UHGV virus genome: UHGV-0105321
Length of the DNA stretch: 24,512 nucleotides
Source: a virus
Strand: one strand, 5' to 3'
Shown here: in pieces, positions 8,184 to 22,281 of the stretch
How the letters are laid out: each line of letters opens with the position of its first letter
How positions within the stretch are numbered: position 1 is the first letter of the stretch
Program-made: the position numbers and the translations under genes
Notes under the pieces: model-generated
Databases searched by the model: none
What the model saw: the letters and a program-made list of their open reading frames with translations, nothing else
What the model was told of the DNA's origin: nothing

Positions 8184-8891
8184 TCACGAACTTTTCAGCC
8201 ACTCCCTTGCCTCGATGTCATCCAGATGGCGAGATTGCTTCAGAATACCAGCTACATACTCCACCTTTGCTACTTGATGATAAGGCAACGTTATAGGCCT
8301 GTGATCCTGGTTAATGCTTGTAAATTGGTATTCTCCATCTCTGTCATAGCCAAGAACCTTAATCATGTTGTGTCCTTCAACGGTTCTGACAAACACCTCA
8401 TCACCCGGGAATACTTTGGTGTTAGGCTCAATGAGTACATATTCTCCTGATTTTATTCTGGGCCACATGCTGTCTCCTTTCACACGAAGACCAAAGGCAT
8501 CTGGATCATCGCTATAAATTTTGAGCCACCCATCGCGCTCTTCGGTCATCTCGATGGCACCATCAACACCAAGAATTGCCTCACCAACCACGCGCACTAA
8601 CCCTTTTTTTAATTTGCCAACAAATGAAAGAGTATCTTCATCATTCGCTCCATTTAACGAAGTGCCGTGCTGAAGCCAAACAACATCAACGTTTAGAAAT
8701 TTCGCAAGCGCATTCATTTTTTCCTGACGCGGTAAAGACTCAGCATTAAACCATTTGCTAACGCCTTTGGACGAAAGAGAAAGGGCACGGGCTATAGCCA
8801 TTCCCCTACCATGTTCATCAAGACCAGCTTCTTTACAGGCTTGCGCTAGCCGCTGGGCGAATTCTTTGCGCACTTTTTCATTCTGAACCAT
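8184..8891 (-). CDS. cI: CI-type prophage repressor: N-terminal HTH plus C-terminal LexA-like S24 self-cleaving domain, 235 aa
   Basis: HTH-like segment GRGMAIARALSLSSKGVSKW; C-terminal GDSMWPRI...GEYVLIEP...GDEVFV...GHNMIKVL typical of the S24 fold; no Shine-Dalgarno before the ATG, as for leaderless lambda cI; divergent from cro. Confidence 0.88.
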   Translation of the reverse strand: MVQNEKVRKEFAQRLAQACKEAGLDEHGRGMAIARALSLSSKGVSKWFNAESLPRQEKMNALAKFLNVDVVWLQHGTSLNGANDEDTLSFVGKLKKGLVRVVGEAILGVDGAIEMTEERDGWLKIYSDDPDAFGLRVKGDSMWPRIKSGEYVLIEPNTKVFPGDEVFVRTVEGHNMIKVLGYDRDGEYQFTSINQDHRPITLPYHQVAKVEYVAGILKQSRHLDDIEAREWLKSS

Positions 8892-8969
8892 GAGTACGAT
8901 ACTAAAGCACTTGCAAAAACTTTCAGTTCAACCATAATACGTACTGAAAGTACGAAAAAGGATATTCCT
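8892..8969. promoter_or_regulatory. OR-type divergent control region: pR candidate (TTGCAA at 8911..8916, 17-nt spacer, ATAATA at 8934..8939) and a perfect 6-3-6 palindrome CGTACTGAAAGTACG (8940..8954)
   Basis: Near-consensus sigma-70 elements at correct spacing upstream of cro; palindrome overlaps the -10/+1 region; related ACTAAAG / CTTTCAGT half-sites further upstream. Confidence 0.6.
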
Positions 8970-9197
8970 ATGCAAAATCTTGATGAGCCGATTAAAGGTG
9001 TCGGCATCCCTGAAGTTGCGAAGGCTTGTGGAGTTAGCGAAAGGGCTGTCTATAAGTGGCTCAAAAACGGCTTCCTCCCTAAGACTGAGTTTTTTGGGAA
9101 AACTAAATACGCATCAAAAATCGAAGAGATTTCTGGTGGCAAATATCAAGCAAGCGAAATGCTTGAAATAAGCAAAAAGAACCTTCTGGCTGCATAA
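8970..9197 (+). CDS. cro: Cro-like HTH regulator, 75 aa
   Basis: Divergent from cI across the operator region; HTH-like VAKACGVSERAVYKWLKNG; AAGGA ribosome-binding site. Confidence 0.75.
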   Translation: MQNLDEPIKGVGIPEVAKACGVSERAVYKWLKNGFLPKTEFFGKTKYASKIEEISGGKYQASEMLEISKKNLLAA

Positions 9198-9795: not shown

Positions 9796-10872
9796 ATGCG
9801 TAATTACGCAACAATTTCACCTCAGTTCTGGTTAGGCGATACAGGGCGAAAACTAAGGAAGTCTGGTCCGGAATGTATGGTAGTGGCGTTGTATATGATG
9901 ACCTCGCCTCATTCCAATATGCTGGGCCTTTATTACCTGCCTGTTTTGTACATTGCTCACGAAACCGGACTTGCTCCTGAAGGGGCTTCTAAGGGGCTTC
10001 AAATGGCTTGCGAGGCTGGTTTTTGCAGCTATGACCATGATTCTGAGGTTGTATGGGTGCATGAAATGGCAGCATGGCAGGTTGGTGAATCGCTGAAACC
10101 TGGCGATAACCGTTGTGCTGGGGTAAGAAATGAATATTCCGCGTTGCTGGAAAATCCTTTTTTATCATCCTTTTATGATAGATATAAGGATGATTTCCAC
10201 CTGGATGTCAGACGTGAATCATGTCGGAAAATTGAAGCCCCTTCAGAGCCCCTTTCAAGCCAAGAACAGGAACAGGAACAGGAAAGGGATAAAACCCTTC
10301 TGGTCCATGGCGAAAAAATCGCCACGGACCCACAGGGGGATTTTTGTCCTGTTCTGACTGAACGTCCAGGACCAGATGGCACGACACCGGAAGCAGATTC
10401 CGGGCGTTGTGTGCAGCAGGTGCTGATCGTCGAACCGGAGCAACAACGCCAACCGCAGCAGCCTGAAGCCGATTCCGCGATGAGCGGGAAGCCGATTGGG
10501 TTAACCCGGGCGATGCCGGGACCGTCTGCGGGACGAGTTGATTATCCTGACGTGTTCGAACGGGTCTGGCGTGAATATCCGCATCGGGCAGGGTCAAACC
10601 CGAAGAAATCCGCGTTCAATGCCTGGAGGGCCAGATTACGCGAAGGGGTGTCACCGGATGTCGTGCTGGATGGCGTGAGGCGTTACGCAAGATACCTGGA
10701 GGCTACCGGGAAAGCGGGAACTGAATTTGTTCAGCAGGCATCGACGTTTTTTGGCCCGAACAGGAATTTCGAAAATCCGTGGTCGCTGCCGAAGGCTGGC
10801 GCAGTCAGCCTGCGTTGCGTGAATCACATTTCTGAACCGGACACCGAAATTCCGCCGGGTTTCAGGGGGTAA
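9796..10872 (+). CDS. Putative replication initiation protein (O position, not lambda O-like in sequence), 358 aa
   Basis: Located between cII and a DnaC-like loader with good ribosome-binding site; contains QEQEQEQE and short reiterated DNA motifs. Function assigned by position only. Confidence 0.55.
   Translation: MRNYATISPQFWLGDTGRKLRKSGPECMVVALYMMTSPHSNMLGLYYLPVLYIAHETGLAPEGASKGLQMACEAGFCSYDHDSEVVWVHEMAAWQVGESLKPGDNRCAGVRNEYSALLENPFLSSFYDRYKDDFHLDVRRESCRKIEAPSEPLSSQEQEQEQERDKTLLVHGEKIATDPQGDFCPVLTERPGPDGTTPEADSGRCVQQVLIVEPEQQRQPQQPEADSAMSGKPIGLTRAMPGPSAGRVDYPDVFERVWREYPHRAGSNPKKSAFNAWRARLREGVSPDVVLDGVRRYARYLEATGKAGTEFVQQASTFFGPNRNFENPWSLPKAGAVSLRCVNHISEPDTEIPPGFRG
10441..10521 (+). repeat. 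Direct-repeat copy 2, inside the initiator coding sequence
   Basis: Matches 9698..9765; contains an internal GAAGCCGATT duplication. Confidence 0.75.
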
Positions 10873-10878
10873 TCAGCC

Positions 10879-11619
10879 ATGAAAAACATTTCGACAGGAG
10901 GGATTCTTGAACGGGTGCGCCGTCTGGCACCACCGCACGTGGCAGCACCGTTCCGGACGACCGACGAATGGCGGGAATGGCAACTGGCTGAGGGCCGGAA
11001 GCGCAGCGAGGAAGTTAACCGCCAGAATCACCAGACGCGGGTTGAAAAAATCCTGAATCGTTCGGGCATCCAGCCGCTTCACAGGAAGTGCTCATTCGGG
11101 AACTACCGGGTGCAGAACGACGGTCAGCGCCATGCTCTGAGCCAGGCGAAATCCATTGTCGATGAATTAATGACCGGTTATACAAACTTCGTGTTCAGCG
11201 GGAATCCGGGAACCGGAAAAAATCATCTGGCGGCGGCTGTGGGTAATCGTCTGCTGAAGGCCGGTAAATCCGTGATAGTGGTCACCGTGGCGGATGTGAT
11301 GAGCGCGTTACATGCCAGCTATGACGACGGACTGTCAGGGGAAAAATTTTTGCGTGAACTGTGCGAAGTGGACCTCCTGGTTCTTGACGAAATTGGCATC
11401 CAGCGTGAGACGAAAAACGAGCAGGTGGTACTGCACCAGATTGTTGACCGCCGGACGGCATCACTGCGCAGTGTCGGGATGCTGACAAACCTGAATCATG
11501 CCGCAATGAGCACGCTTCTTGGTGAGAGGATTATGGACCGGATGACCATGAACGGTGGTCGTTGGGTGAATTTTAACTGGGAGAGCTGGCGGTCAAACGT
11601 TGGACGTCAGGGTATGTGA
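10879..11619 (+). CDS. DnaC/IstB-like AAA+ helicase loader, 246 aa
   Basis: Walker A GNPGTGKNHLAAA and Walker B LLVLDEIG; follows the initiator gene with a 6-nt gap. Confidence 0.85.
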   Translation: MKNISTGGILERVRRLAPPHVAAPFRTTDEWREWQLAEGRKRSEEVNRQNHQTRVEKILNRSGIQPLHRKCSFGNYRVQNDGQRHALSQAKSIVDELMTGYTNFVFSGNPGTGKNHLAAAVGNRLLKAGKSVIVVTVADVMSALHASYDDGLSGEKFLRELCEVDLLVLDEIGIQRETKNEQVVLHQIVDRRTASLRSVGMLTNLNHAAMSTLLGERIMDRMTMNGGRWVNFNWESWRSNVGRQGM

Positions 11620-11644: not shown

Positions 11645-11842
11645 ATGGAAACCGTATTGCATGCACTGAAAGCGATGGGAAAAGCCAATTCTGTTGAACT
11701 GGCGGCGCGGCTTGATATCAGCCGTGAAGAAGTTCTCAACGAACTGTGGGAGCTCAAAAAAAATGGCGTTGTTGATAAAACGGGTCACACCTGGTTTCTG
11801 GCTGTCGAAGGTGAAGCCGGGGTACGGAGTATTCCCGTCTGA
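11645..11842 (+). CDS. Small winged-helix-like DNA-binding protein, 65 aa
   Basis: HTH-like segment [35 protein letters not shown] upstream of the ATG. Confidence 0.5.
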
Positions 11843-12074
11843 ACAGGCTCGTAAGGACTGGCAAAATGCCCGCAAAAAACTCTCAAGGGCAAAGTCGAAG
11901 AAACCGGTTGTCGTTGATCCAGACCTTATCCGGGCATTACCAGATGGGGAAATACGGCGCTACGACAGACGCTACAACACAATTTGTCGCGAGTGCCGTA
12001 ACAGCGAAACGATGCAGCGTGTGCTGGCATTCTGGCGAGGGAGTGCAGAGGGATTGATGTTCTCCCCGTCGTGA
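11763..12074 (+). CDS. Hypothetical basic protein (about 103 aa if started at ATG 11763); overlaps the preceding ORF in another frame
   Basis: Long ORF with protein-like composition; start unresolved (ATG 11763 after GGGAG, or GTG 11811); 80-nt out-of-frame overlap with 11645..11842. Confidence 0.35.
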
Positions 12075-12106
12075 ATGACGGGGGCTTACGTGTTCAGAAA
12101 AGTGAT

Positions 12107-12781
12107 TCATATAGAGGCTGAATCTGATCTTTTTTGTTCACGTCTGGCTTCCACTATTGCAGGCAGAGTGAAGGCGTAGACTAAAAACATTTCGGTAAAA
12201 CTCAGGATCTGGCTTGCCTCAATTGGTGTGAAAACTTCATCTGTATGAACTGCTTTATTGGCATCAATTCGTACAATATGAGCCCATTCCTTCATCTGTT
12301 CAGTGATCAGGCCTTTTTTGTAAATCATCTGAATACGTTGCGACAGCGATTCTTTTCCTGCTTCATCGCCGAGCAGTTTTTTCGTGGAGATATCGAGGAC
12401 TCTGCGACAAAGAATAACCACTGTGTCGTACCGCCTCCTCTGTAAATCCTCTTTTGCCTCAACAAAAGTACGGTCTGCAACCGGGGGCGTATATTCTGGT
12501 GCGGTAATTTTTTTGACCACAGGATAGATCTTGCGGAAACGGTACTGGCTATTTCCTGAAATCAGAATATCGAGGTCTTTTTTCTGGCTTTCCGCCATGG
12601 GGCCGTGATAGTGGTCTGATGGGATTTCAACAATAGCAACACCTCCTCGATGACAACTTCTGCATACAAAAGCGACGTTAAAAAAAGGTGTTTTTTCAAT
12701 TTGTTTTTCGGCAAATGCCTCAATAACAGCTCGCTCTTTTAAACAGTGCGGGCATGTGATATCAAAGGAGACTAAACCCAT
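12107..12781 (-). CDS. Zinc-ribbon plus DUF4145-like protein, 224 aa, counter-oriented to the flanking rightward operon
   Basis: N-terminal CPHC...CRSCH; C-terminal half has the pattern I associate with DUF4145 (…EWAHIVRIDANKAVH…); GAGGAA ribosome-binding site before ATG 12779..12781. Confidence 0.7.
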   Translation of the reverse strand: MGLVSFDITCPHCLKERAVIEAFAEKQIEKTPFFNVAFVCRSCHRGGVAIVEIPSDHYHGPMAESQKKDLDILISGNSQYRFRKIYPVVKKITAPEYTPPVADRTFVEAKEDLQRRRYDTVVILCRRVLDISTKKLLGDEAGKESLSQRIQMIYKKGLITEQMKEWAHIVRIDANKAVHTDEVFTPIEASQILSFTEMFLVYAFTLPAIVEARREQKRSDSASI

Positions 12782-13025
12782 GGATATTCCTCGCGAAATT
12801 AAAGAAATTAACGAAATCATTGAGGTTACTGATCGCCCCGAGTTTACCCTCATGCGCCGTTATGAAACAGGAACCGACGAGCAAAAATACATCATGGTTG
12901 CAGCATTGGCTGTGATGGCGATAGAAAGGGAGCGAAGGGAAAAGGACGTAATGGTTATTCCTGCGAGAAATGATTCACCGGATTTGAGATGGCAGGAGCC
13001 GGAGTGGGATGTGGTAATCCGGTGA
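12780..13025 (+). CDS. Hypothetical small protein, 81 aa from ATG 12780
   Basis: AAGGAG 9 nt upstream of the ATG; its start codon overlaps the divergent start of the DUF4145-like gene at a CATG. Could be spurious. Confidence 0.3.
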   Translation: MDIPREIKEINEIIEVTDRPEFTLMRRYETGTDEQKYIMVAALAVMAIERERREKDVMVIPARNDSPDLRWQEPEWDVVIR

Positions 13026-13079
13026 TTGATATTTCTCTGGGGTAAAGCGCCGCCAGAATGACGGCGCGGTAGTGGAGAG

Positions 13080-13388
13080 TTAAACGAAGCGGATCTGGAG
13101 TTTTTTCCCTGTAGCACGGGCGAATTTTTTCAGTGTGGCAAATGATGGGCCGCTTGTACCTGATGCAAGATTGCTTTCCATTCTGGTTATCGCAGTCGCT
13201 TTTGTTCCCATACGTTCAGCAACTTCAGCCTGGGTTAAGCCAGCTTCTTTTCGTGCTGCCAGCATTTCATCAAGTAGTGCGAATTCATCGGCGATGGCGT
13301 CGTATTCTGCTTTTACTGCGGGGTTAGACAACATTTTTTCTACCATTTCATCGTGTGTCATGGTAGGTGGGGTACGTTTACCAGTCAT
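13080..13388 (-). CDS. HTH (XRE-like) antitoxin of a HigA/Gp48 type, 102 aa
   Basis: HTH-like LTQAEVAERMGTKATAITRMESN; overlaps the upstream toxin ORF by 11 nt; toxin-then-antitoxin order. Confidence 0.72.
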   Translation of the reverse strand: MTGKRTPPTMTHDEMVEKMLSNPAVKAEYDAIADEFALLDEMLAARKEAGLTQAEVAERMGTKATAITRMESNLASGTSGPSFATLKKFARATGKKLQIRFV

Positions 13389-13707
13389 GCTTAACCTCCT
13401 TCATTCTGGTTTCAGCTTTTCTAAGCTCGGCAGGTGGAGTTTTTTGCGTTTTCTTTACAAAGCTATGCAACATAATGATTCGCTTTCCTTTTAGCGTGCA
13501 GTAAAAAACACGCCCTATGCCTTCCGAGCCCTTAAGGCGGATTTCAAACAAACCGTCGCCAAATGCCTCTGTATGCGGGGAACCAAGATTAGCTCCGTAA
13601 ATACGCATTTTCTCCGTGTACCGAATGTACCGGGCTTGTAAGGTCTCAGGAAGAGAAAGGATCTCAGCTTCAACCTCGTCACTGTAGTATTCGATAATGT
13701 AGTTCAT
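13378..13707 (-). CDS. RelE/HigB-like (Gp49-like) toxin, about 109 aa from ATG 13707
   Basis: Size and sequence character (…FGDGLFEIRLKGSEGIGRVFYCTLKGKRIIMLHSFVKKTQKTPP…) typical of HigB/Gp49-family toxins paired with a downstream HTH; palindrome AACAAATTTGTT in the promoter region. Start codon uncertain (13707 or 13719). Confidence 0.68.
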   Translation of the reverse strand: MNYIIEYYSDEVEAEILSLPETLQARYIRYTEKMRIYGANLGSPHTEAFGDGLFEIRLKGSEGIGRVFYCTLKGKRIIMLHSFVKKTQKTPPAELRKAETRMKEVKHDW

Positions 13708-13839
13708 GAGAGTAAACATAACAAATTTGTTATATACATTCAAGGTATGTTGACGACAACACATATCCGGGATTATATTCTTCGCACGCCAGCAAAATCT
13801 GGCGTCGGGATTAGCACCCCGGATATCGAAACGGTGCAT

Positions 13840-14024: not shown

Positions 14025-14699
14025 ATGACTGTTCAAATCTCTGTCAAAAACCTTTCCCCTGTTACCTATAACCAGATTCCGGTAATCACAACTGAGTTGC
14101 TTGCCCGCCTTTATGGAACAGAAACAATCCGTATACAGCAGAATCACCATGAAAATAAATCTCGGTTTATTGAGGGAAAGCACTTCTTTAAAGCTGTTGG
14201 TGATGAACTCAGAAATTTGCGACTAGTTTTAAACGAGTCGCAAAATGAGGTGAAAATCTCTCCCAAAACCCGCTCGCTCATCCTCTGGACAGAACGAGGC
14301 GCAGCCCGCCACGCAAAAATGCTAGAAACCGATCAGGCGTGGGAAGTGTTCGAAAAACTGGAAGACTGCTATTTCAGCCAGGGAAAAACAGCACCAACCG
14401 AACAGCAGCCGCAGATTCAGCCACAATTCACAGCCGAAGAAATCATCCTCCTTTGCTACATGCAACTCTGGATGGAAAAAGCCCAGGACCTTAGCAAGCA
14501 GCTGTACCCCATAATGAAAGAGCTGAACTCCTCATACACGAACAAGCTGTATGACATTGCGTTTGAGACCATCTACATGGTGACGAAGAACAGAGACGCG
14601 CTACTAAGGGAGGTAACACGTCTCGACATGTCAAGTTCCGTTATCCAGCGGGCCATGCCAATGCTGAAAAGCCTGCGGGCAAGACAATTTGAATTCTGA
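14025..14699 (+). CDS. Hypothetical nin-region protein, 224 aa, possibly antirepressor-like
   Basis: Well-formed ORF followed by a terminator; the N-terminal region weakly resembles phage regulatory/antirepressor N-terminal domains by eye. Confidence 0.45.
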   Translation: MTVQISVKNLSPVTYNQIPVITTELLARLYGTETIRIQQNHHENKSRFIEGKHFFKAVGDELRNLRLVLNESQNEVKISPKTRSLILWTERGAARHAKMLETDQAWEVFEKLEDCYFSQGKTAPTEQQPQIQPQFTAEEIILLCYMQLWMEKAQDLSKQLYPIMKELNSSYTNKLYDIAFETIYMVTKNRDALLREVTRLDMSSSVIQRAMPMLKSLRARQFEF

Positions 14700-14705
14700 A
14701 ACTAA

Positions 14706-14726
14706 AGGAGCTTCGGCTCCTTTTTT
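14706..14726 (+). terminator. Intrinsic terminator (GGAGC-TTCG-GCTCC followed by TTTTTTGTT)
   Basis: Perfect 5-bp stem, tetraloop, T-run, immediately after the stop at 14699. Confidence 0.6.
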
Positions 14727-14753
14727 GTTGGGAAAATCCAGTGAGAGGGAATA

Positions 14754-15164
14754 ATGAACCAGACTATCTTCCTCCGAAGTAAGCAGCAGCAACAATTCGC
14801 CATTAACGCCATCCTTGCAACAACTCTCGATAAAGACAAACCCGTTACGATCCGTATCACCGATTACAAGCGTAATCTCGCTCAAAATGCAAAATTTCAC
14901 GCGATGGTCGCTGATATATCCCGCCAGGTTAAGTGGTGCGGCAGGTGGCTAAAACCAGAACAGTGGAAAGTTTTGTTAATCAGCGGTCATGCCGTGGCGA
15001 CAAAACAGGAAGCTGATGTTTTGCCAGGTCTTGAAGGTGAATACGTCAATATCCGCGAAAGCAGTGCGCAGATGAGCGTGAAGCGTATGGCAAGCCTGAT
15101 TGAGTACACAACTTCCTGGGCTGTGGATCAGGGTGTCAGATTTACCGACAGGAGGTATGAATGA
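14754..15164 (+). CDS. ninB: NinB-like recombination protein, 136 aa
   Basis: Segment [32 protein letters not shown] resembles lambda NinB as recalled; first gene of a nin-type block. Confidence 0.75.
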
Positions 15165-18520: not shown

Positions 18521-18829
18521 ATGGCATTTAAACACTATGACGTGGTCAGGGCATCATCGCCGTCAGACCTCGCAGGAAAACTGACGCAAAAACTGAAGGA
18601 AGGCTGGCAACCCTATGGTAGTCCGATTATCTCAAACGCGGGTTATGGTGCTGAATTTATCCAGGCTATTATGGTTCCGGTGGACGAACGGATGCGAAGA
18701 GCTGGACAACATCCGATCGTAAAACCCACTTTGGTTCATGGGCGCGTCGCGGAATTATTTCCGACCGTCTGGCAACAGCCATTCTTCTGCATGTGGGCAG
18801 AGTGGCAGATTTTGTTTCCGGGAAAGTGA
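18521..18829 (+). CDS. DUF1737-like N-terminal domain ORF (MAFKHYDVV...), about 102 aa as written; probably part of a larger frame-disrupted gene
   Basis: GGGAGGA ribosome-binding site before ATG 18521; N-terminal sequence resembles the DUF1737 domain that I recall at the N-terminus of prophage NanS-p esterases; the ORF runs into an overlapping frame. Confidence 0.5.
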   Translation: MAFKHYDVVRASSPSDLAGKLTQKLKEGWQPYGSPIISNAGYGAEFIQAIMVPVDERMRRAGQHPIVKPTLVHGRVAELFPTVWQQPFFCMWAEWQILFPGK

Positions 18830-19587
18830 CAAAAGCCGCGGTTTCTTCAGGCGGAGGCGTATCGCAACCAGCACAGGAGAGTGGCGATACTCAGCCTGAA
18901 TCCGTTGTCCCGACAAAGATACAGTCAGTGCTGGCTTATGATGCGAATGCGGAAAATGCCGATCTGGCTTCGCAGGGCTGGACGCTGACAGATGTCAAAA
19001 ACACGCTGGTCAGTGACAGTGGTTCAGGTAAAAAAGCCCTTCGTCTTGAAAAACCAGAAAATGGTCTTGCACAGAAAAAGACCTGGAAAGTATCGCACGC
19101 AATTGATGCCGGTAAGGGGAAGGAGCTGTTCGATAACGGCGGTGAAATCACGCTGCGCTTTAAAATCCCCGATGATGTATCTCTCAATGCTTCTGCAAAT
19201 CAATATTCTGCGGGTATTTACTGGCGCGGTAGTGGATGGCCGGGAGCGGAATCAGAGGAGGGTTATATTGCGGCCTTCTATCTGCAGACTGATAAAACAA
19301 ACATCAATGTGATGTATCATGCAAACACCACATCACAGCGGCTTGGTAGTTATGGTCCGTTCGATCACGACTGGCACACGCTGACTTTCCGCTTCCCGGG
19401 TGGTGGCTCGCTGAACGTCACGCCGGTGCTTGATAATGCAGCAGGAAAACCGTTTACGCTGACCAGATGGACGAATGCAGCCTTTGAGGCCAACGCGCTG
19501 GCAATTACGGATATTACCGGAAATGCGGCAACTTACCCTGTGCTGATTGAAAGTCTTACTGTTGGTGTGAATGCCGTAGCAGCATAA
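18793..19587 (+). CDS. Beta-rich putative carbohydrate-binding-like domain ORF, 264 aa, with no in-frame ATG until far downstream; likely continuation of the DUF1737 gene after a frameshift
   Basis: Long ORF with protein-like composition (Gly/Thr/Asn-rich); track start is a GTG; overlaps the upstream frame over 18793..18829. Confidence 0.5.
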   Translation: MGRVADFVSGKVTKAAVSSGGGVSQPAQESGDTQPESVVPTKIQSVLAYDANAENADLASQGWTLTDVKNTLVSDSGSGKKALRLEKPENGLAQKKTWKVSHAIDAGKGKELFDNGGEITLRFKIPDDVSLNASANQYSAGIYWRGSGWPGAESEEGYIAAFYLQTDKTNINVMYHANTTSQRLGSYGPFDHDWHTLTFRFPGGGSLNVTPVLDNAAGKPFTLTRWTNAAFEANALAITDITGNAATYPVLIESLTVGVNAVAA

Positions 19588-19727
19588 CAGACGAAAAAAA
19601 CCGCCAGCAACAGGAATGGAGACTGGCGGAGGTAATCCCAATGGAGAATCTAACGAAAGGATGCTTTCGACATCAATCATTTCTAAATGAAAACAGTTCT
19701 CATTGTCAACAGTAACGGTAATAAACC

Positions 19728-19922
19728 ATGACATTCATCAACCAGTTAATGCTGTACTTCTGTACGGTGGTCTGTGTGTTGTATCTGCTTTCGGGTGGAT
19801 ACAGGGCAGTACGCGACTTCTGGCGCAGACAGATTGACAAAAGGGCCGCTGAGAAAATCAGCGCCACTCAGTCAGCCGGAGCAAAAACAGAAGCCCCACT
19901 CATTCCGGAACAACCTTCTTAA
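19728..19922 (+). CDS. Small membrane protein, 64 aa (one transmembrane helix then a basic segment)
   Basis: Hydrophobic stretch LMLYFCTVVCVLYLLSGGY; weak ribosome-binding site. Confidence 0.4.
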   Translation: MTFINQLMLYFCTVVCVLYLLSGGYRAVRDFWRRQIDKRAAEKISATQSAGAKTEAPLIPEQPS

Positions 19923-19947
19923 TAACCCCTTTCAACGAGAAAATCTC

Positions 19948-20238
19948 ATGACAGATATAAAACAACTGGTCACTGCTGAGGCAGTGAAGGAAGTCATTCG
20001 CTCTGAAGAAGTCAGAAGCGTCCTGAAACAAAAACTCCGCCAGAATCTGGAAGAGCGTCTTGATGCAGAAGTGGATTCAATTCTGGATGAATTGCTTGGT
20101 GCACAGCCGGAACCATCCCCGGAACTGCTTCCGGAACCACAGGCGGAAGATGTCACCACGGAAAATGGTGATATTCAGCCGGAGTCACCGGTGACGGATA
20201 TGACAGACACACAACCCGAACCGGGCACAATGCTGTAA
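19948..20238 (+). CDS. Acidic hypothetical protein, about 96 aa from ATG 19948
   Basis: ORF ends just before a strong terminator at 20250..20281; weak ribosome-binding site; Glu/Pro-rich C-terminus. Confidence 0.4.
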   Translation: MTDIKQLVTAEAVKEVIRSEEVRSVLKQKLRQNLEERLDAEVDSILDELLGAQPEPSPELLPEPQAEDVTTENGDIQPESPVTDMTDTQPEPGTML

Positions 20239-20249
20239 CGGCGGGGCAG

Positions 20250-20281
20250 GGCCATCAGTAAAACACTGATGGCCTTTTTTA
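20250..20281 (+). terminator. Strong intrinsic terminator (9-bp stem GGCCATCAG/CTGATGGCC, 7-nt loop, then T6)
   Basis: Perfect inverted repeat 20250..20258 / 20266..20274 followed by TTTTTT. Confidence 0.7.
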
Positions 20282-22281
20282 TTTCCGGTAGCACAGGTCT
20301 GTCGGGGCGGGGATATGTATCAGATGGAAAAAATATCAACGGGCATATCCAGGTGGCAACCTCATTCCGTTCAGGTACGGTGCAGCGCCTGCATATCTCA
20401 GAGCACGGCAAAATTTGCGCAAAATATCCGGCTAAGGCGAAAGAACTGCGAACCGGTACACTTAATGCCGTCTCTGATGAGTGCATTATTTTTGATGAAT
20501 CCACTGCTGAAGGTGTGGGTGGCGATTTTTACGAGATGAGTACCGTTGATGGTGTTCTGGGTATGGAGGCCAAAACGCGGACTGATCTGTTGGTGATATC
20601 AGATGATCCTGATGATGAAACAGAAAAACTGGCTGAAGCTATTAATGCTGAATTTGCCGATGCTTGCCGCCTTGGAAATATGAATAAAGCCCGTTCTGAT
20701 GCCTATGCGGAACAAATCAAAGCGGGGCTCAGCTGGGTGGAGGTCAGACGGAACAGCGATCCGTTCGGGCCTGAGTTTAAGGTGTCTACTGTCAGCCGGA
20801 ATGAAGTGTTCTGGGACTGGCTCAGCCGGGAGGCTGATTTAAGTGACTGCCGCTGGCTGATGCGCCGCCGCTGGATGGATACCGATGAGGCAAAAGCCAC
20901 ATTTCCGGGAATGGCTCAGGTTATCGATTATGCCATTGATGACTGGCGTGGTTTTGTCGATACCACGGTTACTGAAGGCCAGCCCAGTCCGTTGATGAGT
21001 GCATGGGAAGAGTATCAGTCATGGGATCGACAGCAGAACGAATGGCTTCAGCGTGAACGCCGTCGTGTGCTGCTTCAGGTGGTTTATTACCGTACATTCG
21101 AGCGTCTTCCGGTGATTGAACTCAGTAATGGACGGGTGGTGGCCTTTGATAAAAATAATCTGATGCATGCGGTGGCTGTGGCATCCGGGCGGGTGCAGGT
21201 GAGAGTCGGGCGGGTAAGTCGTATTCGTGAAGCCTGGTTTGTGGGACCGCACTTTATTGTGGATCGCCCCTGCAGTGCGCCGCAGGGGATGTTCCCGCTG
21301 GTTCCCTTCTGGGGATACCGGAAGGATAAAACCGGGGAGCCTTACGGGCTGATTTCCCGGGCCATTCCGGCACAGGATGAGGTGAATTTTCGTCGTATAA
21401 AACTGACGTGGTTGCTTCAGGCCAAACGCGTGATTATGGACGAGGATGCCACCCAGTTGTCAGACAACGATCTGATGGAGCAGATCGAGCGTCCGGATGG
21501 CATTATTAAACTGAATCCGGCCCGAAAAAATCAGAAAAGCGTTGCTGATGTTTTCCGGGTTGAACAGGATTTTCAGGTTGCCAGCCAGCAGTTTCAGGTC
21601 ATGCAGGAGTCGGAAAAACTTATCCAGGACACGATGGGGGTTTATTCCGCATTTCTCGGGCAGGATTCAAATGCATCGTCCGGCGTGGCGATCAGCAACC
21701 TGGTGGAGCAGGGAGCCACAACCCTTGCCGAAATCAACGATAACTACCAGTTTGCCTGCCAGCAGGTGGGAAGGCTGTTGCTCGCTTATCTTCTTGATGA
21801 CCTGAAAAAGCGGCGTAATCATGCGGTGGTGATTAATCGCGATGATCGTCAGCGTCGCCAGACCATTGTCCTCAATGCTGAAGGTGATAATGGTGAACTG
21901 ACCAATGATATTTCAAGGTTAAATACACATATTGCGCTGGCTCCTGTTCAGCAGACACCGGCGTTTAAGGCACAGCTTGCACAGAGAATGTCAGAGGTTA
22001 TTCAGGGGCTGCCGCCTCAGGTGCAGGCTGTTGTGCTCGATCTGTGGGTTAATCTTCTGGATGTGCCGCAGAAACAGGAATTTGTCGAACGTATTCGTGC
22101 GGCGCTGGGGACGCCAAAATCACCGGATGAGATGACTCCGGAAGAGCAGGAAGCGGCAGCACAACAGCAGGCGCTGGAGCAACAGCAGGCAGAACTTCAG
22201 ATGCGCGAAATGACAGGCCGGGTGCGTGAGGCATTTCGCCGTCGTGTTGCGGAGACTGAACAGCATGGCGGAACTGACTGA
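20269..22281 (+). CDS. Large late-region structural protein, up to 670 aa, with portal-like character (tentative); true start unresolved
   Basis: Uninterrupted frame ending in a Gln/Ala/Glu-rich helical tail (…EEQEAAAQQQALEQQQAELQ…) as seen in portal proteins; the annotated 5' end overlaps the terminator hairpin and no in-frame start has a good ribosome-binding site. Confidence 0.5.
   Translation: MAFFISGSTGLSGRGYVSDGKNINGHIQVATSFRSGTVQRLHISEHGKICAKYPAKAKELRTGTLNAVSDECIIFDESTAEGVGGDFYEMSTVDGVLGMEAKTRTDLLVISDDPDDETEKLAEAINAEFADACRLGNMNKARSDAYAEQIKAGLSWVEVRRNSDPFGPEFKVSTVSRNEVFWDWLSREADLSDCRWLMRRRWMDTDEAKATFPGMAQVIDYAIDDWRGFVDTTVTEGQPSPLMSAWEEYQSWDRQQNEWLQRERRRVLLQVVYYRTFERLPVIELSNGRVVAFDKNNLMHAVAVASGRVQVRVGRVSRIREAWFVGPHFIVDRPCSAPQGMFPLVPFWGYRKDKTGEPYGLISRAIPAQDEVNFRRIKLTWLLQAKRVIMDEDATQLSDNDLMEQIERPDGIIKLNPARKNQKSVADVFRVEQDFQVASQQFQVMQESEKLIQDTMGVYSAFLGQDSNASSGVAISNLVEQGATTLAEINDNYQFACQQVGRLLLAYLLDDLKKRRNHAVVINRDDRQRRQTIVLNAEGDNGELTNDISRLNTHIALAPVQQTPAFKAQLAQRMSEVIQGLPPQVQAVVLDLWVNLLDVPQKQEFVERIRAALGTPKSPDEMTPEEQEAAAQQQALEQQQAELQMREMTGRVREAFRRRVAETEQHGGTD

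Follow-up and report, generated by a model that had tools for sequence, protein, structure and literature searches.

A zinc-ribbon DUF4145/HEPN gene of a lambdoid Escherichia coli prophage: a candidate abortive-infection RNase related to RAZR

Introduction

What could a leftward gene be doing in the middle of the rightward early operon of a lambdoid prophage? The question is raised by the virus genome UHGV-0105321, a 24,512-nt stretch of DNA (the window), in which an open reading frame (ORF) at 12107..12781 on the minus strand encodes a protein with an N-terminal zinc ribbon and a C-terminal DUF4145 domain. We refer to these as the DUF4145 gene and the DUF4145 protein. An earlier reading of the sequence (the original prediction) had placed the gene in a defence or abortive-infection context. 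Our analysis supports this reading, and sharpens it by comparison with the architecture of RAZR (PD-T7-4): with a probability of roughly 0.6, the DUF4145 gene would be a prophage moron for a single-protein abortive-infection (superinfection-exclusion) RNase that is built like RAZR.

RAZR, the ring-activated zinc-finger RNase of Escherichia coli, is the same protein as PD-T7-4 (Zhang et al., Nature 2026; PDB 9Y9C, 9Y6U; PMC13017515). Its N-terminal part is a Cys4 zinc ribbon, and its C-terminal DUF4145 domain is a divergent HEPN RNase; the substitutions R146A and H154A each abolish defence, which operates by abortive infection, and the linker between the domains is required for both oligomerization and defence (PMC13017515). 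At rest, RAZR forms inactive linear oligomers. Upon infection, rings of ~170 Å, formed by an Erf-like protein of the phage or by a portal of the T7 type, become surrounded by 24 copies of RAZR; thus activated, the enzyme cleaves single-stranded RNA non-specifically, and the infection is aborted (PMC13017515). Variability in RAZR is highest in the zinc-finger domain, which sets its phage specificity. Higher-order oligomers are driven by an inter-dimer interface formed by V21, D179, D180 and R184, in which the D179/D180/R184 salt bridges are needed for activation.

A zinc ribbon joined to a HEPN-fold domain

The predicted 224-amino-acid (aa) minus-strand protein corresponds to an intact ORF of 224 codons, the GAGGAA ribosome-binding site proposed for it is present, and the motifs that had been singled out could all be located (CPHC at residues 10-13, CRSCH at 40-44 and VRIDANKAVH at 170-179). 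The gene and the parts of its product are as follows.

12107..12781, minus strand: coding sequence of the zinc-ribbon + DUF4145/HEPN protein, 224 aa, beginning MGLVSFDITCPHC; stop codon at 12107-12109
12792-12787, minus strand: Shine-Dalgarno-like GAGGAA, read from the sequence, 5 nt 5′ of the ATG
12626..12781, minus strand: N-terminal Cys4 zinc ribbon, residues 1-52, defined by conserved cysteines and AlphaFold2 strands
12752-12754, 12743-12745, 12662-12664 and 12653-12655, minus strand: zinc-ribbon cysteine codons C10, C13, C40 and C43, respectively
12524..12625, minus strand: variable insert, residues 53-86, one helix and one strand, with the lowest conservation in the family
12482..12523, minus strand: proline-rich linker, residues 87-100, with P87, P95 and P99 invariant in the family
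12137..12481, minus strand: HEPN-fold DUF4145 domain, residues 101-215, with the catalytic motif R171-x3-N175-x3-H179 at 12245-12271

The open frame runs further 5′ to an ATG at 12853, which would give a protein of 248 aa. We take the ATG at 12781 to be the right start because the aligned homologs begin there: its methionine is the start in all 20 of them bar one, and that one is plainly over-extended. The protein is not the product of a chance ORF, having hundreds of full-length homologs with invariant Cys and R/N/H positions. Comparison with the alleles of three related phages gives a dN/dS of ~0.2-0.3, a value of little power since it is based on 2-10 substitutions only.

The DUF4145 signature named in the original prediction was recovered by a profile hidden Markov model search: Pfam DUF4145 (PF13643, clan KNTase_C/HEPN) matches residues 118-197 (E 3.9e-9; 36.9 bits, gathering cut-off 23.1 bits), in an alignment that spans positions 11-88 of the 88 in the profile. 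Positions invariant in 21 relatives (36-70% identity) include C10, C13, C40, C43, R126, D130, W166, R171, N175 and H179, and the four cysteines together with R171, N175 and H179 are invariant or at least 90% conserved in 42 distant relatives (23-51% identity). The DUF4145 protein has the four-helix, up-down fold by which HEPN domains are recognized. R171 and H179 are spaced as R-x7-H with N175 in between, which differs from the canonical HEPN Rx4-6H (located after the third core helix) and equals the spacing in DUF4145/RAZR (R146...H154). An AlphaFold2 model built from 21 family members (mean pLDDT, the predicted local distance difference test, 87.7; pTM, the predicted template modeling score, 0.75) places four β-strands in the zinc ribbon at pLDDT 85-95. 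Taken together, these data show a Cys4 zinc ribbon, a proline-rich linker and a HEPN-fold domain with a conserved R-x3-N-x3-H. Anantharaman et al. placed DUF4145 in the HEPN superfamily and listed both zinc-ribbon fusions and occurrence in dsDNA viruses (PMC3710099).

Other searches were less informative. The family profile matches the RPB9 zinc ribbon only weakly, below significance; there is no NCBIfam model for it; a phmmer search of the PDB with the single sequence returned nothing, even at E 10; and a viral structure library gave two significant matches, neither of them interpretable. HEPN-MNT toxins are among the Foldseek structural matches of the model.

A relative of RAZR

For the comparison with RAZR, a query was rebuilt from database fragments, resulting in a sequence of 219 aa with R at position 146 and H at 154, equal in length to the 9Y9C chain. 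BLASTP aligns the DUF4145 protein with this query at 24% identity over 141 aa covering the linker and the nuclease domain (pairwise E 4e-5), in a register that places R171 with R146 and H179 with H154. Aligning the DUF4145 family with the RAZR family by hhalign gives a probability of 86.8% and E 4.3e-6 over 99 columns. The two families are further linked by the PD-T7-4 model, which is matched by 23 of 42 diverse members of the DUF4145 family at E ≤ 0.01 (best 3.7e-9).

The likeness extends to the overall build. Both proteins are encoded by one gene of ~220 aa and share the domain order zinc ribbon, linker, DUF4145/HEPN, with CPHC-x26-CRSC here and CPHC-x29-CSHC in RAZR, and with the R-x3-N-x3-H motif aligned to R146/H154. 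Their AlphaFold2 models share the order of a short strand, four strands, the linker and five or six helices. Linker prolines P87, P95 and P99 align with P66, P74 and P79 of RAZR in both BLASTP and hhalign (the RAZR linker spans 66-79). In both, the N-terminal half evolves fastest and the gene is carried by mobile elements. The two also differ: the DUF4145 protein has ~25 extra residues after the zinc ribbon, including a helix (61-68) absent from the RAZR model, and the RAZR gene is usually found at an island edge, overlapping an integrase gene, whereas the DUF4145 gene is an internal, counter-oriented moron. The DUF4145 protein is a relative of RAZR rather than a member of its family.

The RAZR-family database entries (P0053-P0172) show a peculiarity of their own: many are just 146-182 aa long, compared with 206-221 aa for full-length members. 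These short entries begin at or after the second CxxC (e.g. MHVSVCLCCSEE) and so have no first zinc knuckle, representing either mis-called starts or truncated variants.

A large family with a variable N-terminal half

A word-indexed search found 52 homologs at E ≤ 1e-3, all 52 with a precomputed PF13643 annotation. An exhaustive profile search raised this to 3,325 representatives of 50%-identity clusters at E ≤ 1e-3, including 1,402 at E ≤ 1e-10; the best 150 of these are mostly 205-230 aa long and matched end to end. Within the family, mean pairwise column identity is 0.48 in the zinc ribbon, 0.22 in the insert and 0.66 in the HEPN domain, so that the N-terminal half varies much faster than the nuclease half. 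In the RAZR alignment, the zinc-finger domain stands at 0.40 and the HEPN domain at 0.77. Closer to home, the DUF4145 protein is 96.9-99.6% identical across E. coli and Shigella phages. By the exhaustive search, it belongs to a large sister family that is separate from RAZR.

Other single-protein systems and prophage morons

Besides RAZR, several known systems resemble the DUF4145 gene in part. DS-38 (working name HEP2, WP_001313577.1) is a phage-validated, single-protein zinc-finger + HEPN system of E. coli (bioRxiv 10.1101/2025.01.08.631726; PMC13092281), described in the DefensePredictor paper as aligning with PD-T7-4 in the HEPN domain alone. We rejected DS-38 as the identity of the DUF4145 protein, given its different accession and its size: a gene of 1,101 bp (~366 aa) compared with 224 aa here, a comparison made by description rather than by alignment. 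The accession WP_032144013 does not appear in the accessible portion of the DefensePredictor tables. BxaP, a BREX-associated DUF4145/HEPN protein, protects against T4 in an Abi-like mode, but there the DUF4145 domain is N-terminal and fused to a HEAT-like domain, a zinc ribbon is absent, and the association is with BREX and not with a prophage (PMC10799925).

In genomic role, the DUF4145 gene can be compared with the old and tin morons of P2, accessory genes that a prophage expresses from variable hot spots and that abort the infections of other phages. The rexAB genes of lambda are likewise a prophage exclusion moron. These are unrelated in protein and chemistry, and are comparable to the DUF4145 gene in genomic role only.

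An exchangeable cassette in the early region

The window is a lambdoid E. coli prophage of the Stx-phage type (Sepvirinae). Its DUF4145 region is 99.6% identical to phage PhiR5_2 and ~92% identical to the Shigella phages 75/02 Stx and POCJ13, all three of which carry the gene at the same position. The cI, cro, cII, O-like, DnaC-like loader and DUF1627/DUF977 genes are followed, after this rightward series, by the leftward DUF4145 gene; beyond it come a small ORF facing right, the HigB/HigA-like pair facing left, and the rightward ant, ninB, rusA and ninH. The features that matter here are listed below.

9796-11619, plus strand: O-like and DnaC genes
12034..12783, no strand: exchangeable cassette of 750 bp with no counterpart in phiSTEC1589-Stx1c (blastn)
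12780..13025, plus strand: small ORF of 81 aa, phrog_8371 (PHROG E 7.9e-56), putatively coding, with too few substitutions for a firmer call
13080-13388, minus strand: HigA-like antitoxin (HTH_3, Pfam E 3.6e-11)
13378-13707, minus strand: Gp49/HigB-like toxin (PF05973, E 1.2e-26)
14025-15164, plus strand: ant and ninB genes

The gene thus opposes both the O-like/DnaC and the ant/ninB genes, which agrees with the proposed counter-orientation between the replication and nin modules; being leftward among rightward genes, it is antisense within the early operon. The idea that it is a moron-like, variable insert also held when related prophages were compared. In phiSTEC1589-Stx1c, homology stops at 12033 and restarts at 12784 (97.9% identity), and window positions 12034-12783 are replaced by 884 bp of unrelated DNA with other ORFs. 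Among 5,426 complete E. coli genomes, 37 have the DUF4145 gene, always on the chromosome; 48 have the right-flank segment and 1,179 have the left-flank segment. In one genome, that of E. coli S1-CAM-02-A (NZ_CP145707.1, ~2543328-2543702), the match is limited to the 5′ part of the gene (query bases 301-675); this copy is possibly interrupted by an insertion sequence (IS), as the same prophage has an IS21-like ISEc10.

Each of four relatives with 43-53% identity, whose contexts were read, is a lone, counter-oriented gene in a lambdoid prophage, located at the replication|ninB boundary (Atlantibacter, Yersinia) or at the lysis|terminase boundary. A Burkholderia phage has a 34%-identical copy, counter-oriented in its early region, and the P2-like phage Cartapus has a 26%-identical relative between cos and the portal gene. 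The cos-portal locus of P2, where old and tin reside, is a hot spot of anti-phage systems (PMC9122126).

This distribution bears on two other roles that the gene might have. PHROG assigns the whole DUF4145 protein to phrog_1305 (E 6e-63), labeled 'DNA binding protein', and the protein could be the phage's own nucleic-acid-binding regulator or an RNA-processing factor, acting for instance on early transcripts at the replication-nin junction. We consider this improbable: the gene is absent from ~97% of prophages that have the replication-module flank, unrelated DNA takes its place in a close relative, its homologs lie elsewhere in other phages, and it is transcribed against the operon that it would have to serve. 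As for the label itself, we found no evidence, experimental or otherwise, behind it.

The second role would be that of a counter-defence or host-takeover factor that aids infection, for example by degrading host or competitor RNAs or by acting as a decoy for a host system. Anti-defence genes also occupy variable cassettes in early regions, and a gene for a 'Ren-like exclusion protein' adjoins the DUF4145 gene. Yet its orientation relative to the early operon favors expression in the lysogen over lytic expression, and a conserved catalytic HEPN motif within a RAZR-like build fits a defence effector. We know of no anti-defence family with a zinc ribbon + DUF4145/HEPN architecture, and regard a counter-defence role as very unlikely.

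Neighboring genes and the toxin-antitoxin alternative

The cassette boundary (12783/12784) falls at the start codon of the DUF4145 gene, leaving its GAGGAA in the conserved flank, outside the swapped segment; the ribosome-binding site and any promoter would therefore lie in the flank that contains the phrog_8371 ORF. The start codons of the two genes (12781 on the minus strand and 12780 on the plus strand) overlap in the palindrome CCATGG (window 12779-12782). An AAGGAG stands 9 nt 5′ of the phrog_8371 ATG, within codons 3-6 of the DUF4145 gene, so that the Shine-Dalgarno sequence of each gene is located within the first codons of the other.

The original prediction of an adjoining toxin-antitoxin pair on the same strand was right as to the pair and its strand (13080-13707), which also appears in the RefSeq and GenBank annotation of the same genes. 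The pair is not immediately adjacent: 298 bp containing the phrog_8371 ORF lie in between. In phiSTEC1589-Stx1c, the HigBA-like pair (window 13071-13748) is swapped independently, its slot being taken by another leftward pair of genes (for proteins of 95 aa and 122 aa; locus 5893-6622). There are thus two neighboring accessory slots with a conserved 287-bp segment between them.

Could the DUF4145 protein itself be the toxin of a toxin-antitoxin or addiction module, stabilizing the prophage, neutralized by the phrog_8371 or the HigA-like product and sensing no phage at all? HEPN domains are those of the classic HEPN-MNT toxins, which are among the structural matches of the protein, and the gene lies beside the HigBA-like pair with its start overlapping a small conserved ORF. 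These toxins (PDB 7AE2/7AE6, 5YEP) differ, however, in having Rx4-6H, an MNT antitoxin partner and no zinc ribbon, compared with R-x7-H and no partner gene here. Across the four homolog contexts there is neither an MNT gene nor any conserved neighbor, the surroundings being wholly different each time. Both nearby candidates for a partner were rejected: the phrog_8371 ORF is retained by phages whether or not they have the DUF4145 cassette, and persists where the cassette is replaced, while the HigBA-like pair is swapped independently, is not found beside the four 43-53%-identical homologs and is complete in itself. Moreover, RAZR, the nearest characterized relative, has no need of an antitoxin (PMC13017515). 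A toxin role is unlikely on these grounds.

Two neighbors gave weak matches to defence-system models. The HigB-like protein (13378-13839) matches the C-terminal part of Menshen NsnC (E 9e-8), and the Ant-like protein (ORF6N + P22_AR_C; 14025-14699) matches the PADLOC candidate PDC-S05 (E 2.5e-7). Both matches probably reflect shared domains rather than membership of these systems.

An intact gene in a crippled prophage

Relative to its relatives, the prophage has suffered several deletions. The window lacks 783 bp that are present in PhiR5_2, 75/02 Stx and the E. coli G1/2 prophage (window 11645-12074, junction 11820-11824). This deletion, with a 5-bp overlap at the junction, joins the DUF1627/YdaW gene, cut off after its first ~60 codons, to the last part of the DUF977 gene (LygF, 'Ren-like'); both genes are therefore destroyed or fused here. 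Compared with the G1/2 prophage, three further deletions fall within window 18664-20545. They are listed here together with two genes for ring-forming proteins.

18669: deletion of ~0.9 kb, inside the SASA esterase gene
20347: deletion of ~3.1 kb, removing holin, lysozyme, Rz and part of terminase
20545: deletion of ~1.3 kb
20269-22281: P22-type portal ORF, retained
82-867: Bet

The prophage of the window is unable to lyse or package, and the DUF4145 gene and the HigBA-like pair are intact despite the loss of lysis and terminase genes. Separately, the G1/2 prophage, which is otherwise 97-99.9% identical, has nothing that corresponds to the immunity region (6407-9189; cI-like repressor 8184-8891 and the leftward genes beyond it, among them a DUF3024 gene at 7782-8123), and this module looks like a mosaic exchange.

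Weight of the evidence

In favor of a RAZR-like abortive-infection RNase, we count the homology to RAZR, the shared architecture, the variable N-terminus, the location at moron hot spots, the rare and swapped cassette, and the intactness of the gene in a crippled prophage.

A number of observations weigh against it. The DUF4145 family itself is known from sequence and models. When searched with defence-profile collections, as the original prediction had suggested, the gene was not called: PADLOC gave one weak and partial PD-T7-4 match (residues 85-183) of only 15.3 bits and E 0.0025, compared with 254-339 bits over the full length for four true RAZR homologs. Searched against the PDB, the family profile reaches the RAZR structure (9y9c_OA, a chain of 9Y9C) at only E 0.17, with R, N and H in register; the score of 14.7 bits makes RAZR proper too distant for the DUF4145 family set. 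Nor is 9Y9C among the 50 Foldseek matches listed. Confidence in the AlphaFold2 model is lowest in the catalytic loop, with pLDDT <50 at residues 173-177, and the zinc-ribbon halves of the two families have no statistical alignment in hhalign. The interface residues D179, D180 and R184 of RAZR are aligned to V201, Y202 and L206, which form no charge pair; residue by residue, assembly into filaments or rings of the RAZR type is therefore unsupported. The DUF4145 family has a strongly conserved hydrophobic patch instead (F195, F199, Y202, F204, L206 and P207), and its sensor and oligomer interface thus appear, from sequence, to differ from those of RAZR. Finally, and at the weakest point of the case, two scans, one of them relaxed, found no convincing σ70 promoter in the 360 bp 5′ of the gene, and expression in the lysogen is for this reason an assumption. 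Promoter scans 5′ of two homologs gave nothing informative. A weak hairpin follows higA, and transcripts may read through from the higBA-like operon into the DUF4145 gene.

Proposed mode of action

For the DUF4145 protein as a RAZR-like effector, we infer expression in the lysogen, sensing of a phage, oligomerization and RNA cleavage, in the following order. The protein would be made in the lysogen in an inactive form. Its variable zinc ribbon and insert would bind some protein of the invading phage; as with RAZR, this might be a large oligomeric assembly. Binding would give the HEPN domains the geometry of an active dimer or oligomer. Non-specific RNA cutting could then halt translation, and the infecting phage would fail to spread. 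Upon induction of the prophage itself, the DUF4145 gene may be silenced, because it is antisense inside the pR early operon; this would avoid self-triggering by the prophage's own ring-forming proteins.

Implications for prophage-encoded immunity

The authors of the RAZR study argue that RAZR escapes autoimmunity because none of the host's own proteins forms a ring of suitable size (PMC13017515). The DUF4145 family would be a natural test of this argument, since the lambdoid and Stx prophages that carry it encode portal and recombinase rings of their own. Tentatively, and with more doubt than conviction, we suggest that temperate phages harbor a large, unrecognized sister family of RAZR, with a different sensor (zinc ribbon + hypervariable insert), a different, hydrophobic oligomer interface, and either discrimination between self and foreign rings or antisense shut-off by pR. 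Because the carrier makes ring proteins (the P22-type portal and Bet), such a family would have to tell self from foreign rings or be shut off. If true, it would reveal by what means a protein of immunity that senses rings or assemblies spares a cell in which such structures are made.

If the DUF4145 gene is not defensive, it would be an ordinary uncharacterized moron. If it is, prophage-encoded immunity in E. coli, Shigella and other Enterobacterales would be under-counted, because the profiles of current defence finders miss this family. For Stx phages, an exclusion gene expressed in the lysogen could shape which phages co-infect toxigenic strains.
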